Source of the DNA: Escherichia coli
GTDB taxonomy: Bacteria; Pseudomonadota; Gammaproteobacteria; Enterobacterales; Enterobacteriaceae
Reading direction: 5' to 3' (one strand)
Assembly (NCBI RefSeq): GCF_009931435.1
Contig: NZ_CP043414.1
Length of the DNA: 64,000 nt
Within the stretch, counting starts at the first letter, position 1; every line of letters begins with the position of its first letter. A program made the position numbers and the translations under genes. Under the pieces are notes generated by a model. That model had not been told where the DNA came from, did no database searches, and was given only the letters and a program-made list of their open reading frames with translations. Shown piece by piece: positions 54,272 through 63,744 of this stretch.

Positions 54272-56299
54272 ATGCACTATCGCAATGTGGTTTGTTTGTT
54301 GTCTTTTTTAGTTCCGTCAGCGTGGGGATGCTCGCTCGGTGAACCTGATCATAATATTTACCAGAAACAGGGAAAAGGCGTGGTATACCTGCGCCCTAAT
54401 GAAGAGACAAATCTTTCGTTACCGGAAGTAAATTACCAGCGACTGCGTCGTTTACCTGATTTATTCATTGTTCCTGACACCCAGGACGATGGGGAAAAAG
54501 AACCGCCGTTAAACGACCTTACCACCGATTATATTGATCAGGGCGCATGGGCCTGGTATCCAAATTATGCTTACTTTAGCGATGGCCGTTTTGTTATTTA
54601 TGCGGGCAAGATTGTACAAAATCCATCTGGTTATCCACCGGTCGATGTAGCCTCGTTCCATTCATGGGGCGATTTTGCCGTCGATAAAAACAGCATTTAT
54701 TACAAAGGCCAACGGACAGATGAAAATGGCGGCAAGCAACGCGTCGATGAAAAAACGCTGCGCAAAGTAGGATTAGGTAGCCGTTGGATGCCTGATCGGC
54801 TGGGATTGGTGCTACGTGACGCGCATTTTCTTTATATCGATGGGCACCGTTTTGATAACCCAGAGAGTTTTTCCGTGATCGCGCAAAAATCCTGGGGTCA
54901 ACAAGGGAAATTCGCTTCAACGTTTTTTCCCTGCATTGCCTACCCCTTTGGCCCGTGGGATATGCTTACCCGCACACGAACAAAGTTGCTGATCAATGGA
55001 GAGCAACTGGATGCAGATCCGGACAATTTTTCTGTCGTTCGCTGGATGCCCGGCACCCTGTTTAGCTGGCGTGATAAACACGGCGAGCATCGTAAAGTCA
55101 TTGATCAGGTTCGTTTGGCAAGGAATGAAGATATATCCCGGCAATGTGACAACTTTACGCTGTTAGAAAAAAAGGTGTTCTGGCGCAAGGGGCCAGATTG
55201 TGAGCAGGAAGAATTACCCAGTCTCGACCCGGAGCAGTTTCACCCGATCAGTGACATCGTGGCGCAGTATCAGGACAAGTTGTATGCAATCAGTAAGACC
55301 CCCTTCGGTGAAAATCAGTTGGAGATCATCACCCTGGATAACCCGAATCTGATCATCAATAAACGTTTTAATGCCGGAAGGCATCATGGCTATTTAATCA
55401 CCCGATCAACAAATTGGGACGGACATGAGAAAGACGGTTTACAGGTGTTTGAATCCGTTGGCCCACTGATACTGCTGGACTACCGTGTGCCGAATGAAGC
55501 AGATGCACACCGTGGCAATAACCCGCATTACAAAAAATGGTTTGCTCGCGACGATCGTTACGTTTATGCATTCGATGGTGCGCAGCTTTGGCGTTACCCT
55601 ACGCAATATCCCAAAGCGGCACGTATCAAAGCCGCTAAAGACGACTGGCTGAACGTCAGCCTTAGCCAATTGGACGGTGAGATAATGAAAGATGGCTCAT
55701 TTACTCCCACTGGCATCAAGCACACATCCTCTTTAAAACCCGCCAAGGCATACGAAGATGGGGACAATGAATCTTCATTTATCGTAAATAAATCGGGAGT
55801 AGGCTGGCGAAAAGCGCTTTCACCCGACCTGCAATGGAGTGAGTGGCATTACCTGGAAGGCATTTATCCAAAAAAGTTACATCTGATTACCGAACGTATT
55901 GCACAGTACAAAAACCAACTCTACGTCGTCAGGCGCTCGCATTTTGGAGAAGATCGGCTAGAAATCATAGAGTTGGAGTCATCTTTGCCCATCAAAAATA
56001 AACCGATAAATACGGGCAAGGAGCGTCATTACTTTCTGCAAAGTACCCGACAAAAACAGGATGTGCAGGTATTCACCAGCAGCGGTGCGCTGATAGCAAC
56101 GGAGCGCTTTGCTTATGACGATAGCTATGTCTACACCTGGATTGACGATCAGCTTTATCGCACACCCTCCCCCTGCCCAGCGAAAACATACGTCAGAGAA
56201 AAGAATGTCCGTGAAATTCATAACAGCGACATTATTATTCCGGTGACGGAGGAATCGTGCCGGAACGCAGCAGCAGACGGGCAAACTTTGAAGCCCTGA
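54272..56299 (+). CDS. Large secreted/lipoprotein-like repeat protein with DKNYY-like motifs, accessory insertion
   Basis: Track ORF 54242..56299; likely start at the Met giving MHYRNVVCLLSFLVPSAWGC (signal peptide with Cys); repeated D-K-N-x-x-Y-Y-like motifs and an internal tandem duplication. Confidence 0.6.
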   Translation: MHYRNVVCLLSFLVPSAWGCSLGEPDHNIYQKQGKGVVYLRPNEETNLSLPEVNYQRLRRLPDLFIVPDTQDDGEKEPPLNDLTTDYIDQGAWAWYPNYAYFSDGRFVIYAGKIVQNPSGYPPVDVASFHSWGDFAVDKNSIYYKGQRTDENGGKQRVDEKTLRKVGLGSRWMPDRLGLVLRDAHFLYIDGHRFDNPESFSVIAQKSWGQQGKFASTFFPCIAYPFGPWDMLTRTRTKLLINGEQLDADPDNFSVVRWMPGTLFSWRDKHGEHRKVIDQVRLARNEDISRQCDNFTLLEKKVFWRKGPDCEQEELPSLDPEQFHPISDIVAQYQDKLYAISKTPFGENQLEIITLDNPNLIINKRFNAGRHHGYLITRSTNWDGHEKDGLQVFESVGPLILLDYRVPNEADAHRGNNPHYKKWFARDDRYVYAFDGAQLWRYPTQYPKAARIKAAKDDWLNVSLSQLDGEIMKDGSFTPTGIKHTSSLKPAKAYEDGDNESSFIVNKSGVGWRKALSPDLQWSEWHYLEGIYPKKLHLITERIAQYKNQLYVVRRSHFGEDRLEIIELESSLPIKNKPINTGKERHYFLQSTRQKQDVQVFTSSGALIATERFAYDDSYVYTWIDDQLYRTPSPCPAKTYVREKNVREIHNSDIIIPVTEESCRNAAADGQTLKP

Positions 56300-56346
56300 C
56301 ACCATGCCGCTATACTGCCGCCATCACCTAAAAACAGGAAACAACA

Positions 56347-56667
56347 ATGAACGACAGTGAATTTCATCGCCTGGCCGATACCCTGTGGCTGACCATTGAA
56401 GAACGTCTGGACGACTGGGATGGCGACAGCGATATCGACTGCGAAATCAACGGCGGTGTGCTGACCATTACCTTTGAAAATGGCAGCAAAATCATTATCA
56501 ACCGTCAGGAACCGCTGCACCAGGTGTGGCTGGCAACCAAACAGGGTGGCTACCATTTTGACCTGAAAGGCGACGAATGGATTTGCGACCGTAGCGGCGA
56601 AACCTTCTGGGATTTGCTGGAACAGGCGGCAACGCAGCAAGCGGGTGAAACAGTCAGTTTCCGCTAA
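56347..56667 (+). CDS. cyaY: Frataxin homologue CyaY
   Basis: 106-aa [59 protein letters not shown]... Confidence 0.95.
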
Positions 56668-56706
56668 GATTGCATGCCGGATAAGCCTCGCTTTCCGGCA
56701 CGTTCA

Positions 56707-59253
56707 TCACGAAAAATACTGCTGTAATAGCGGCGTGTCGTGATCCTGATTGGCAGGCGGCATGTTGCCGATAGATTTGGTGCGGAACGGAATCACCTGT
56801 TCACGACCATCAACCTTCACAATCTGATAGAACTGCGGCAGGTTGAAGTTGATGAAGCTTGAGCCGTAGGTAAAACGGTCGTGCGATGACGAGTAGAAGC
56901 GACTGACGTCACGCACCAGCTCCTCTTTGCTGCCTTCGCAGTGGTGATACACCTCAACCCGGTTGCTTTCGTCGAGAATGTAGATATTAAAGCCATTCTC
57001 GTCTTGCGTTTCTTCGAAGAAGAACTGGATGATCCCTTCGCTGGCAAAGCCGTCCACCACCGCCGGTAATTTGACGTGATTGGTTTCAACCTGCACTGAC
57101 AGGCCGTGCAGTTTGTTATGCGAAATAGCGCCATAAAACTCAATGGCATTTTCCAGTTTCTGTACCGATACATTCAGCCGTTCGAAGAACAACCCCCAGG
57201 TTTGACCAGAAACGCGCAGCGCCTTGAAGCGCCCTGTTTCCTGACGGGTGCTGGACAGACGCAGTTCAATACACTCAGAAACCAGTTGCTGCACGCGAGT
57301 ACGGATTAAGCCGCGCAGATGCTGGCTGTAGCAGAAGACTTCCACGCTATCTGGCGGTGCGGCGTCCTGATGCATTTTACCGAGAATAGTTTTCAGGGCT
57401 TCGATCATCGACTGCTCGCCGTTGAAGTGCAGCGTACGCACTTCGTTCCACGAGTTGCGGTACAGCAGGTCCACGCTACCTACCAGGCAATTTTGGTTTT
57501 CGCCAAAGCTGAAGACGTCCAGCTTACGGAAATCAAAATGCACCACCTGATTGCGGAACGCAGCTGTCGGGTCATATTCCAGGTTAACGATAATCGCCAG
57601 ATGGCGAATTTCACACGGGCTGTAGAGCGCTTTTGGCGTCGGTGCAGGCAGGCGCAGCGGGAAATGGTGCGACACATCGGCGACCATCTCCTGCAACTTA
57701 GGCAAATCGACAATGCCGTTGCCTTTAATATACAAGCGGGTGCGCGAGGTCAGCAGGCCGTTAAACCATGCCCACGCCACCAGTTTATTCAGGTAACGGT
57801 TATATTCCAGCGGCTGATGGCTGATGATCGACTCAATATTTGGCGCGCGGTTATACAGATACCAACCTGAACGGTTAGCCCGGCCCGGCGGCACATAAAT
57901 AAAGGTCAGATTCGGTTCCGAGAGATCGGGCGAAATCTGCGGGTTTACCAGCGTCACTTTACCTGGCAATGCTTCAAACGCGGCGTACAGTTTACGCGTC
58001 AGAACACCGATATCCTGTGGGCTGGCGGAGACGCTAAGGTTATTGCGACGCGCAAAGCGGATCAGATTACGGTAGCTCTGCATCATTGCATCGAGCAGCT
58101 CGTTGTGCGCCTCACGCACCTGATCAATCTTCCAGTTAGCGCGGTTATCGAGCATTGCAAGACGACCATCGTCCCATTCCCACTCTTTCACTAACTGGGT
58201 TAGCACTTCACGACGCCAGCCTACACAGGCGCGTTCACGGCTGAGTTTTTCGCACACTTTTAAATAGAAGCAGCGACGCACTAAATCCAGACGGGTGAAA
58301 TCTTCAATCGCCGTCAGGTATTCAGTAACACGCTCCAGCATCATGCAGTACGGATCGAGACCAAACGATACAATCTCGCCATCGTGCAAACGCTGTTTGA
58401 TATCTTTCGCCAGCAGACGTGGGTTCGGGTATTCCCAGGAATAGGCTTCCAGCAGCAGTGTTTTCAGCACCGCTTTGTATGGGGAATCGATACTCTTATA
58501 GAGCTGCCAAAGGCTGGCACCAAAGTACTCTTCGGCAGAAAGTGAGCTTAAGCCGCCGAGATCCAGCCATTCATTAGGAGTAAGCACGCCCTGCGCGTAA
58601 AGCGTCATCACATAGTCGTCGTAATGCTCTTCTTCGTCACACGGCACCATATTCCACAGAATACGCTTACCCGCGAGACGCACGGCAGTGCGATAAAATT
58701 CGTCAAGCAGCAGTATATGCTGGGTGGAGCCACAATCTTCGCCCCCCAGGCTGCCGCTTTCATTATGACGGAAGCGATTTTCATCAATCAGGAAGAAGCT
58801 AACTTCCACGCCCAGCGAGGCGGCCCAGCTTTCCAGCAGGCTGCATTTACGTTGTAGTAACTGGCGCTCTTCGCTATCAAGCCAGGATTGATGACAGACC
58901 CAGATATCCAGGTCAGAGGAACAACTTTGCCCTACGGACGAGGTGCTGCCCATGGTGTATACACCAGTAATTGGAAGCTCACCTTTCGGCGGATCCTGTA
59001 CTGACATTCCACGATACAGTTCAAGCTCGTTCAGGTAGTGGCGTTGAGTTTCATCAGGCGTGTAAAGGCAAATGCCTTTGGGAACGTTACCATCAAGGTA
59101 ACCCGGCATTAGCGGATGGTGATAGTGCAACAATGTCGGCAGTAGACTGTAGACCTGTTGGAATGCAGGCCCCATAGCAGCAAGCGCGCGATCCACACGC
59201 AATTGATTTATGGCATCCAGTCTCTGTTTCAGAGTCTCAATATAGAGGTACAA
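56707..59253 (-). CDS. cyaA: Adenylate cyclase CyaA
   Basis: 848-aa [38 protein letters not shown]...; initiation codon is TTG, as established for E. coli cyaA. Confidence 0.95.
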
Positions 59254-59404
59254 GACGTATCGCCTGATTTGCTACCCGTCATGACTGTGATTCCGCCAAC
59301 ATCAACGGTAACACGCGGCATTCGGGATATTTCGTATGTCAAAGGTAACCGTTACCACTTTTCGCGCCTGGTTTTTTTAGTTTCACGACGAAAAAATGGT
59401 CTAA

Positions 59405-59424
59405 AACGTGATCAATTTAACACC
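59405..59424. promoter_or_regulatory. Candidate CRP site in the cyaA-hemC divergent control region
   Basis: AACGTGATCAATTTAACACC, a partial match to TGTGA-N6-TCACA; cAMP-CRP repression of cyaA is established but this site is assigned by eye only. Confidence 0.3.
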
Positions 59425-59639
59425 TTGCTGATTGACCGTAAAGAAAGATGCGCTACATACAAGTGTAGCACCGTTTATTCTCTGTAAATTCCTTATTACG
59501 ACGGCGTGAAACGCCTGTCAGGATCCACTGCCAGACCTCATTTTACGGTTTGCGCAGGCGTCTACGTTTCACCACAACACTGACATCGCTCTGGCAAGGA
59601 TGTTAGGATGGACCACGGATGATAATGACGGTAACAAGC

Positions 59640-60581
59640 ATGTTAGACAATGTTTTAAGAATTGCCACACGCCAAAGCCCACTTGCACTCTGGCAGGCAC
59701 ACTATGTCAAAGACAAGTTGATGGCGAGCCATCCGGGCCTGGTCGTTGAACTGGTACCGATGGTGACGCGCGGCGATGTGATTCTTGATACGCCGCTGGC
59801 GAAAGTAGGCGGAAAAGGCTTATTTGTAAAAGAGCTGGAAGTCGCGCTCCTCGAAAATCGCGCCGATATCGCCGTACATTCAATGAAAGATGTGCCGGTT
59901 GAATTCCCGCAAGGTCTGGGGCTGGTCACCATTTGCGAGCGTGAAGATCCTCGCGATGCCTTTGTGTCCAATAACTATGACAGTCTGGATGCGTTACCTG
60001 CAGGCAGTATCGTCGGGACGTCCAGTTTACGTCGCCAGTGCCAACTGGCTGAACGCCGCCCGGATCTGATTATCCGCTCCCTGCGCGGCAACGTCGGCAC
60101 TCGCCTGAGCAAACTGGATAACGGCGAATACGATGCCATCATTCTTGCCGTAGCCGGACTAAAACGTTTAGGTCTGGAGTCACGCATTCGCGCCGCGTTG
60201 CCACCCGAGATTTCTCTTCCGGCGGTAGGACAAGGTGCGGTCGGTATTGAATGCCGCCTTAATGATACTCGCACTCGCGAGCTGCTTGCCGCGCTGAATC
60301 ACCACGAAACTGCACTGCGTGTTACCGCAGAACGCGCCATGAATACCCGTCTCGAAGGCGGATGTCAGGTGCCAATTGGTAGCTACGCCGAGCTTATTGA
60401 TGGCGAAATCTGGCTGCGTGCGCTGGTCGGCGCGCCGGACGGTTCGCAGATTATTCGCGGTGAACGCCGCGGTGCGCCGCAAGATGCCGAACAAATGGGG
60501 ATTTCGCTGGCAGAAGAGCTACTGAATAACGGCGCGCGCGAGATCCTTGCTGAAGTCTATAACGGAGACGCCCCGGCATGA
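59640..60581 (+). CDS. hemC: Porphobilinogen deaminase (hydroxymethylbilane synthase) HemC
   Basis: Track ORF 59619..60581 trimmed to [34 protein letters not shown]... (313 aa). Confidence 0.95.
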
Positions 60582-61318
60582 GTATCTTGGTCACCCGCCC
60601 GTCTCCCGCTGGAGAAGAGTTAGTGAGCCGTCTGCGCACACTGGGGCAGGTGGCCTGGCATTTTCCGCTGATTGAGTTTTCTCCGGGTCGACAATTACCG
60701 CAACTTGCTGATCAACTGGCAGCGCTGGGGGAGAGGGATCTGTTGTTTGCCCTCTCGCAACACGCGGTTGCTTTTGCCCAATCACAGCTGCATCAGCAAG
60801 ATCGTAAATGGCCCCGACTACCTGATTATTTTGCCATTGGACGGACCACCGCACTGGCGCTACATACCGTAAGCGGACAGAAGATTCTCTACCCGCAGGA
60901 TCGGGAAATCAGCGAAGTCTTGCTACAATTACCTGAATTACAAAATATTGCGGGCAAACGTGCGCTGATATTACGTGGCAATGGCGGTCGTGAGCTAATT
61001 GGGGATACCCTGACGGCGCGCGGTGCTGAGGTCACTTTTTGTGAATGTTATCAACGATGCGCAATCCATTACGATGGCGCAGAAGAAGCGATGCGCTGGC
61101 AATCCCGCGAGGTGACGACGGTCGTTGTTACCAGCGGTGAAATGTTGCAGCAACTCTGGTCGCTGATCCCACAATGGTATCGTGAGCACTGGTTACTACG
61201 CTGTCGACTATTGGTCGTCAGTGAGCGTTTGGCGAAACTCGCCCGGGAACTGGGCTGGCAAGACATTAAGGTCGCCGATAACGCTGACAACGATGCGCTT
61301 TTACGGGCATTACAATAA
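60578..61318 (+). CDS. hemD: Uroporphyrinogen-III synthase HemD
   Basis: 246-aa [37 protein letters not shown]...; ATGA overlap with hemC. Confidence 0.95.
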
Positions 61319-61339
61319 CTCTCATAACAGGAAGCCATA

Positions 61340-62545
61340 ATGACGGAACAAGAAAAAACCTCCGCCGTGGTTGAAGAGACCAGGGAGGCCGTGGACACCA
61401 CGTCACAACCTGTCGCAACAGAAAAAAAGAGCAAGAACAACACCGCATTGATTCTCAGCGCGGTGGCTATCGCTATTGCTCTGGCGGCGGGCGTCGGTTT
61501 GTATGGCTGGGGTAAACAACAGGCCGTCAATCAGACTGCCACCAGCGATGCCCTGGCTAACCAACTTACGGCACTGCAAAAAGCCCAGGAGAGCCAAAAA
61601 GCCGAGCTGGAAGGCATTATCAAGCAACAAGCTGTACAGCTTGAGCAAGCGAATCGTCAGCAAGAAACGCTGGCAAAACAGCTGGATGAAGTCCAACAAA
61701 AGGTCGCGACTATTTCCGGCAGCGATGCTAAAACCTGGCTGCTGGCTCAGGCTGATTTCCTGGTGAAACTCGCCGGAAGGAAGCTGTGGAGCGATCAGGA
61801 CGTCACGACCGCTGCAGCGTTGCTGAAAAGTGCAGATGCCAGCCTGGCGGATATGAATGACCCGAGTCTGATTACCGTTCGTCGGGCAATTACCGATGAT
61901 ATCGCCAGCCTTTCTGCGGTATCGCAGGTGGATTATGACGGCATCATCCTTAAGCTGAACCAGCTTTCTAATCAGGTAGATAACCTGCGTCTGGCCGATA
62001 ATGACAGCGATGGTTCACCGATGGATTCCGACGGTGAAGAGCTTTCCAGTTCCCTCAGCGAATGGCGTATCAATCTACAAAAAAGCTGGCAGAACTTTAT
62101 GGACAACTTCATTACGATTCGCCGTCGTGATGACACCGCCGTACCACTGTTAGCACCGAATCAGGATATCTATCTGCGCGAAAATATTCGCTCCCGCCTG
62201 CTGGTCGCGGCACAAGCCGTACCGCGTCATCAGGAAGAGACTTACCGCCAGGCGCTGGAGAACGTCTCCACCTGGGTTCGTGCTTATTACGATACTGATG
62301 ATGCCACCACCAAAGCGTTCCTCGACGAGGTGGATCAGCTAAGTCAGCAAAATATCTCGATGGATCTCCCGGAAACCCTGCAAAGCCAGGCGATGCTGGA
62401 AAAACTGATGCAGACTCGCGTGCGTAACCTGCTGGCACAACCGGCAGCGGGGACAACGGAAGCTAAACCTGCACCTGCACCTGCACCTGCACCTGCACCT
62501 GCACCGCAAGCTGATACTCCGGCAGCCGCGCCGCAAGGAGAATAA
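61340..62545 (+). CDS. hemX: HemX (putative uroporphyrinogen-III C-methyltransferase-like membrane protein)
   Basis: 401-aa [54 protein letters not shown]...; coiled-coil middle region and Pro-Ala repeat tail. Confidence 0.92.
62468..62497 (+). repeat. Tandem hexanucleotide repeat (CCTGCA)x5 encoding (PA)n near the hemX C-terminus
   Basis: Five perfect tandem CCTGCA units read directly; encodes [10 protein letters not shown]. Confidence 0.85.
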
Positions 62546-62547
62546 CC

Positions 62548-63744
62548 ATGCTAAAAGTGTTGTTGCTCTTTGTTTTGCTGATTGCGGGGATAGTGGTTGG
62601 CCCGATGATTGCCGGTCATCAGGGTTACGTATTGATTCAGACCGACAACTACAATATCGAAACCAGCGTCACTGGCCTGGCGATTATTTTGATTCTGGCG
62701 ATGGTAGTGCTGTTTGCCATTGAGTGGCTACTGCGGCGGATCTTCCGCACAGGCGCACACACCCGTGGGTGGTTTGTCGGACGTAAGCGTCGCCGTGCCC
62801 GTAAGCAGACCGAACAGGCGCTGCTGAAACTAGCGGAAGGCGATTATCAGCAAGTTGAAAAGCTGATGGCGAAAAATGCCGATCACGCTGAACAACCGGT
62901 GGTGAACTATCTGCTGGCTGCCGAAGCCGCGCAACAACGCGGTGATGAAGCACGCGCCAACCAACATCTGGAACGCGCAGCGGAGCTGGCCGGCAACGAC
63001 ACAATTCCGGTAGAAATCACCCGTGTACGTCTGCAACTGGCCCGTAATGAAAACCATGCAGCACGTCACGGCGTTGATAAGCTGCTGGAAGTTACGCCAC
63101 GCCATCCGGAAGTATTACGTCTGGCGGAACAGGCGTATATCCGCACTGGTGCATGGAGTTCGCTGCTGGATATCATCCCATCAATGGCAAAAGCCCACGT
63201 TGGCGATGAAGAGCATCGTGCAATGCTGGAACAACAGGCATGGATTGGCCTGATGGATCAGGCGCGTGCCGATAACGGTAGCGAAGGTTTGCGTAACTGG
63301 TGGAAAAACCAAAGCCGGAAAACGCGTCATCAGGTGGCGTTACAGGTGGCAATGGCGGAACATCTTATTGAATGTGACGATCATGATACTGCCCAGCAAA
63401 TTATCATCGACGGCCTGAAACGCCAGTATGACGATCGCCTGCTGCTGCCGATCCCGCGTCTGAAAACCAATAACCCGGAACAGCTGGAAAAAGTGCTGCG
63501 CCAACAGATCAAAAACGTGGGCGATCGCCCGTTGTTGTGGAGCACACTGGGTCAGTCGCTGATGAAGCACGGCGAATGGCAGGAAGCATCGCTCGCCTTC
63601 CGCGCGGCGCTGAAACAACGTCCGGACGCCTACGATTACGCATGGCTTGCCGACGCGCTGGACAGACTGCACAAGCCGGAAGAAGCCGCAGCGATGCGTC
63701 GCGATGGCTTGATGCTAACGTTGCAGAACAACCCGCCACAGTAG
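62548..63744 (+). CDS. hemY: HemY (TPR-containing inner-membrane protein of the hem operon)
   Basis: 398-aa ORF MLKVLLLFVLLIAGIVVGPMIAGHQGYVLIQTDNYNIETSVTGLAIILIL... Confidence 0.95.
   Translation: MLKVLLLFVLLIAGIVVGPMIAGHQGYVLIQTDNYNIETSVTGLAIILILAMVVLFAIEWLLRRIFRTGAHTRGWFVGRKRRRARKQTEQALLKLAEGDYQQVEKLMAKNADHAEQPVVNYLLAAEAAQQRGDEARANQHLERAAELAGNDTIPVEITRVRLQLARNENHAARHGVDKLLEVTPRHPEVLRLAEQAYIRTGAWSSLLDIIPSMAKAHVGDEEHRAMLEQQAWIGLMDQARADNGSEGLRNWWKNQSRKTRHQVALQVAMAEHLIECDDHDTAQQIIIDGLKRQYDDRLLLPIPRLKTNNPEQLEKVLRQQIKNVGDRPLLWSTLGQSLMKHGEWQEASLAFRAALKQRPDAYDYAWLADALDRLHKPEEAAAMRRDGLMLTLQNNPPQ

Follow-up and report, generated by a model that had tools for sequence, protein, structure and literature searches.

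The in-frame CCTGCA repeat at the 3' end of Escherichia coli hemX and its correspondence to the typing loci CVN014 and EHC-1

The hemX array and two described typing loci

The described loci closest to the repeat considered here are two markers used in E. coli strain typing. CVN014 belongs to the generic E. coli MLVA, GECM-7/GECM-10 (Lindstedt et al., 2007; Løbersli et al., 2012; as cited in PMC8143711, PMC5217547 and PMC3407997), and EHC-1 to the Japanese MLVA of EHEC O157, O26 and O111 (Izumiya et al., 2010; primers in S5 Table of PMC10062581). In Swedish ESBL E. coli, no other locus varied as much as CVN014, for which 2-12 repeats were recorded (PMC5217547, Table 3), and in ST131 its alleles vary widely (PMC3407997, Table 2). 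As regards EHC-1, 3-14 repeats were observed within single O157 clades (PMC10062581, S3 Table).

The window, i.e. the whole 64-kb stretch of E. coli DNA that was analysed, contains a perfect tandem array of six CCTGCA units followed by a partial CC, as counted with a regular expression. Tandem Repeats Finder delimited the same array at 62467-62505, with a period of 6, 6.5 copies and 100% matches. In a random sequence of 64 kb, about 5.6 × 10^-14 perfect six-copy hexamer arrays are expected, so that the array is far beyond chance; it is also the sole perfect repeat of the window with at least 4 copies and a period larger than 3. The array and the gene that contains it are located as follows.

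62468 to 62503, plus strand: VNTR (CCTGCA)x6, in frame 0 of hemX (regular expression and Tandem Repeats Finder)
61340 to 62545, plus strand: hemX coding sequence, 401 aa (PF04375, NF008173; RefSeq annotation of homologous loci)

The array is read in frame 0 of the 401-aa open reading frame and encodes (Pro-Ala)6, corresponding to HemX residues 377-388, which are preceded by K and separated from the stop codon by 13 residues. The preliminary description of this DNA had correctly recognised an in-frame Pro-Ala tract close to the HemX C-terminus, and the start at 62468 and the perfection of the array were also borne out. It had counted five units ending at 62497, whereas six are present, up to 62503.

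The product of the open reading frame matches Pfam family PF04375 over residues 130-363 (E = 3.5 × 10^-108) and the NCBIfam equivalog NF008173 (E = 10^-216, 719 bits with respect to a cut-off of 313). The gene row is hemC (59619-60581), hemD (60578-61318), hemX (61340-62545) and hemY (62548-63744), and homologous loci are annotated alike. As judged from the sequence, the reading frame 61340-62545 is hemX, a member of the HemX family in the hemCDXY cluster. The RefSeq homologues of the window gene all carry the product name uroporphyrinogen-III C-methyltransferase. Pfam analysis of HemX revealed no methyltransferase domain, its matches being limited to the HemX family and to weak hits on membrane segments; for this reason the name looks historical, and we take it to be, probably, a legacy misnomer.

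The known loci were recognised solely by placing published primers on the window, where the following sites are unique and show 0 mismatches.

62444 to 62463, plus strand: CVN014 reverse primer site, GCAGCRGGGACAACGGAAGC (primer from PMC8143711, Table 1)
62567 to 62590, minus strand: CVN014 forward primer site, TCCCCGCAATCAGCAAMACAAAGA, within the start of hemY (primer from PMC8143711, Table 1)
62420 to 62439, plus strand: EHC-1 forward primer site, GTGCGTAACCTGCTGGCACA (PMC10062581, S5 Table)
62513 to 62530, minus strand: EHC-1 reverse primer site, CGCGGCTGCCGGAGTATC (PMC10062581, S5 Table)

Both primer pairs bracket the CCTGCA array and, since they do so without mismatch, this result indicates that CVN014 and EHC-1 are a single locus with two names. 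CVN014 has the same location and the same 6-bp unit as the window array, with no difference at the level of the locus, and EHC-1 refers to the same array, differing from CVN014 solely in primer positions and name. The CVN014 amplicon spans 62444-62590 (147 bp), for which the published formula, (PS-111)/6, gives 6. The same formula returned the true unit count in every fetched allele with matching CVN014 primer sites. On the basis of these primer matches, the hemX array is the long-known MLVA marker CVN014/EHC-1, an ordinary VNTR, of which the window carries allele 6.

The loci O157-3 to O157-37, Vhec and TR were considered by their names and unit sizes only, and the primer match was found for EHC-1. 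A link between CVN014 and hemX was not found in the open-access papers that the searches retrieved, where hemX combined with MLVA gave only an unrelated Salmonella paper (an SNP table), and the search for the hexamer unit as a VNTR, in all its twelve rotations and complements, found nothing relevant.

As a side observation on primer performance, some E. coli lineages (L003 and L011) differ by an SNP at the site of the CVN014 reverse primer (GCAGCAGGGGCAACGGAAGC in place of ...GGGACAACGG...), outside the degenerate base of the primer. For E. coli NCTC11023 an off-scale CVN014 allele is predicted, the reverse primer site also having an SNP, together with a null EHC-1 result, the EHC-1 reverse primer site being partly deleted.

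Copy-number variation among E. coli genomes

A 361-bp query around the array was run against 5,426 complete RefSeq E. coli genomes, and the hemX repeat locus was matched in 5,425 of them. The window itself is only 98.4-98.8% identical to its best match in this set (over positions 1-24000, 56000-62400 and 62300-62660). Its lineage seems to have no close representative in the set and might, as a speculation, be a Shigella or a rare Escherichia lineage other than E. whittamii. From the ranked list of the 5,425 matching genomes we then drew 60 evenly spaced records. In this sample the matched spans were 310-403 bp long; without the 310-bp record they covered 337-403 bp, in increments of exactly 6 bp. 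The 310-bp record was a two-piece match, which was later shown to correspond to the strain without the array. The resulting distribution comprises 13 alleles (0 and 2-13 units), with a Simpson D of 0.91.

Units and number of genomes (60-genome sample)
0 units: 1 genome
2 units: 9 genomes
3 units: 3 genomes
4 units: 5 genomes
5 units: 9 genomes
6 units: 10 genomes
7 units: 6 genomes
8 units: 3 genomes
9 units: 4 genomes
10 units: 4 genomes
11 units: 2 genomes
12 units: 3 genomes
13 units: 1 genome

The units were counted directly in 14 fetched loci, which include at least one locus for each sampled allele (0 and 2-13, with the four-unit allele taken twice), and were deduced from the match spans for the other 46 sampled genomes. 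In the fetched loci the flanks align and all length differences are confined to the array, whose units are perfect with the exception of one CCTGTA variant (L002). HemX length ranges from 384 to 415 aa in this set. Two O157:H7 strains, F7349 and SS TX 313-1, contain 5 and 8 units, respectively, and the published O157 range of EHC-1 (3-14) overlaps these values. E. coli NCTC11023 (L013) contains no array, and yet its HemX is intact, with 384 aa. In this strain the deletion, at about positions 300-345 of the locus, removed the whole array and the codons that follow it, 27 bp relative to the two-unit allele.

We consider it very probable that hemX carries near its 3' end, within the coding sequence, a hexanucleotide VNTR of the microsatellite type, the CVN014/EHC-1 locus itself, which changes by slippage and represents a largely neutral length polymorphism with no on/off switch. 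Slipped-strand mispairing of the perfect CCTGCA units during replication would change their number, and each 6-bp unit gained or lost would add or remove one Pro-Ala dipeptide without ever shifting the frame. The low-complexity Pro/Ala tail past the HemX domain would tolerate any unit number, from none up to 13 at least, and length changes would build up fast enough to separate strains within a clone. Slippage is suggested by the perfection of the array, by the exact 6-bp, whole-unit steps and by the differences within clones. Slipped-strand expansion and contraction had been put forward as the cause in the preliminary description, with which the last two observations agree. That description had also regarded the repeat as a hotspot of length variation among strains rather than a new gene, as confirmed by the 0-13 units in 6-bp steps, and had proposed to count units across Escherichia. 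The 13 alleles in 60 genomes clearly refute invariance.

The single-stranded array is predicted to fold as a hairpin with 4-bp TGCA stems, which is more stable than the folds of shuffled sequences (z = -3.3 for 6 units and -5.2 for 12 units). According to this folding model, the TGCA-stem hairpin could stabilise slipped intermediates.

A perfect simple sequence repeat in a coding region resembles the classical contingency loci, and changes in repeat number might accordingly be thought to toggle hemX on and off, making it a phase-variable locus. This explanation appears extremely unlikely. In fact, the 6-bp unit keeps the frame, and hemX is an intact annotated coding sequence, ending in ...APQGE, in all 14 fetched loci (0-13 units). 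Because of its unit length the array cannot act as a switch of the frameshift type, and phase variation of this kind is ruled out.

Tail length of HemX and the hemY junction

HemX consists of a single N-terminal hydrophobic segment (approximately residues 36-57), the Pfam domain (130-363) and a Pro/Ala-rich tail (364-401), so that (Pro-Ala)6 lies outside the domain, on its C-terminal side. The sequence KKSK precedes the hydrophobic segment. Since this segment is the only one, and on the basis of the positive-inside rule, the bulk of HemX, including the tail, is probably periplasmic; the Pro/Ala tail is also probably unstructured.

Just downstream of the array, the coding sequence of hemY begins 2 nt past the hemX stop codon.

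62548 to 63744, plus strand: hemY coding sequence (open reading frame; annotation of homologous loci)
62535 to 62540, plus strand: AAGGAG, resembling a Shine-Dalgarno sequence of hemY, within the Q-G-E codons that close hemX (direct reading)

The AAGGAG sequence is found 32 bp 3' of the array and 7 nt before the hemY ATG at 62548, a position suggesting that it is the ribosome-binding site of hemY. The array, which precedes the hemY start codon by 45-80 nt and is close to the hemX stop/hemY start (62543-62550), might alter the structure of the mRNA depending on its length, and hence the translational coupling between hemX and hemY. In agreement with this possibility, the array RNA self-pairs and its predicted minimum free energy falls as the number of units rises. 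However, in partition-function folds with 0-20 units the unpaired probability of the hemY Shine-Dalgarno sequence (about 0.00-0.01) and that of the AUG (0.55) were constant, and ribosomes translating hemX would be expected to unwind the array region anyway. We therefore regard a regulatory role of this kind as highly unlikely, and an effect of copy number on hemY initiation was rejected, given that the predicted accessibility of the Shine-Dalgarno sequence and AUG is the same from 0 to 20 units.

The same site of hemX was compared in other taxa. The HemX tail of Escherichia, Citrobacter and Salmonella begins and closes with conserved sequence (RNLLAQP... and ...APQGE), between which length and composition are variable. 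Escherichia whittamii Sa2BVA5 contains (CCTGCA)6 at the same place of hemX (L018, positions 652-687), so that the array also occurs outside E. coli; its hemX-hemY DNA is 92.4% identical to that of the window over the aligned 1.9 kb. The exact pattern ACGGAAGCTAAACCTGCA, searched in species-representative genomes, was found in E. whittamii and in five unrelated matches that were taken as chance, the flank being too variable for an exact pattern. In Citrobacter the arrays were located in the last ~130 bp of hemX. Citrobacter gillenii (L015) has (GCACCT)5 at the homologous site, which is the same hexamer as CCTGCA, and the C. sedlakii-type genes (L016, L017) contain a 9-bp unit, GCACCTGCC, present one to three times across protein clusters (394, 397 and 400 aa). 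No PA run was found in the HemX tail of Salmonella. Judging from these comparisons, the propensity of the hemX site for repeats extends to taxa other than E. coli, and a wide range of tail lengths is tolerated.

Two further observations concern Citrobacter. The 9-bp array of C. sedlakii may be a separate VNTR and a possible typing marker there. Moreover, the tail of protein P0098 (435 aa, JGI metagenome), a Citrobacter-like HemX, is frameshifted and carries about 60 unrelated additional residues; this may be an artefact of sequencing or a genuine frameshift within the P/A-rich segment.

The conserved ends of the tail and the recurrence of tandem arrays at this position in E. whittamii, C. gillenii and C. 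sedlakii would also be expected if the (Pro-Ala)n tract were a semi-rigid spacer of selected length, with slippage providing a heritable and reversible tuning of HemX. The length would then determine, for example, how far the conserved APQGE terminus extends, either through the periplasm or in the direction of a partner protein. HemX does have conserved envelope partners: its two-hybrid interaction with YhcB/ZapG is conserved in three species, and the protein co-purifies with YciS/LapA (PMC8163987). On the other hand, allele lengths are spread broadly from 0 to 13 in the 60-genome sample, with no preferred value across E. coli, one E. coli strain is devoid of the array and Salmonella of the PA run. 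The final QGE codons may be conserved on account of the hemY Shine-Dalgarno sequence that they contain, and in the literature covered no phenotype is tied to copy number. Adaptive tuning is for these reasons quite improbable. The more specific proposal that (Pro-Ala)n is a slippage-driven molecular ruler for the periplasmic reach of the HemX C-terminal end, which would modulate envelope function, we judge decidedly improbable. If it were true, the independent Citrobacter arrays would be convergent evidence of selection on length variability itself. As a separate observation, the ...APQGE end, which is invariant among the HemX proteins of Escherichia, Citrobacter and Salmonella, may be due to the overlap with the hemY Shine-Dalgarno sequence rather than to the function of the protein.

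The tolerance of many tail lengths across taxa favours neutrality, with selection for variability as a less likely alternative, and the length variation of the array is best seen as presumably neutral for the most part. Slippage at a neutral VNTR would account for strain-to-strain differences in HemX length (384-415 aa), which are explained by the CCTGCA copy number without functional implication. The hemX deletion mutant of the Keio collection is viable and shows a lower gentamicin sensitivity (PMC12282077). Because of this altered sensitivity, and because YhcB/ZapG is a conserved partner of HemX, tail length may affect HemX function. Only if it does would a new biological question arise.

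Comparison with other repeat loci and Pro-Ala linkers

The hemX locus is among the most discriminating markers of two E. coli MLVA schemes. What is added here is that CVN014 and EHC-1 coincide in the hemX tail and that the same site is repeat-bearing in E. whittamii and Citrobacter. In practical terms, short-read assemblies and alignments may miscount the units of the array.

With respect to other typing loci, O157-9, O157-17 and O157-25 of E. coli O157 and STTR5 of Salmonella Typhimurium are likewise short, perfect hexamer arrays in coding sequences, which change stepwise within clones and are used in outbreak typing. They differ from the hemX array in genomic site and gene. A number of the O157 loci are limited to certain serotypes or give null alleles, whereas the locus of the hemX array is present in 5,425 of the 5,426 complete E. 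coli genomes.

At the protein level, Pro-Ala/Ala-Pro or Pro-rich linkers include the OmpA hinge, the linkers of the lipoyl domains of pyruvate dehydrogenase E2 and the Pro-rich spacer of TonB. By analogy, the HemX tract would share with them the alternation of Pro and Ala and the expected character of an extended, flexible-to-stiff spacer. Unlike these linkers, the tract, a putative linker, is found near the extreme C-terminus, where it is followed by only 13 residues without a known domain; its length, again unlike theirs, is hypervariable within the species.
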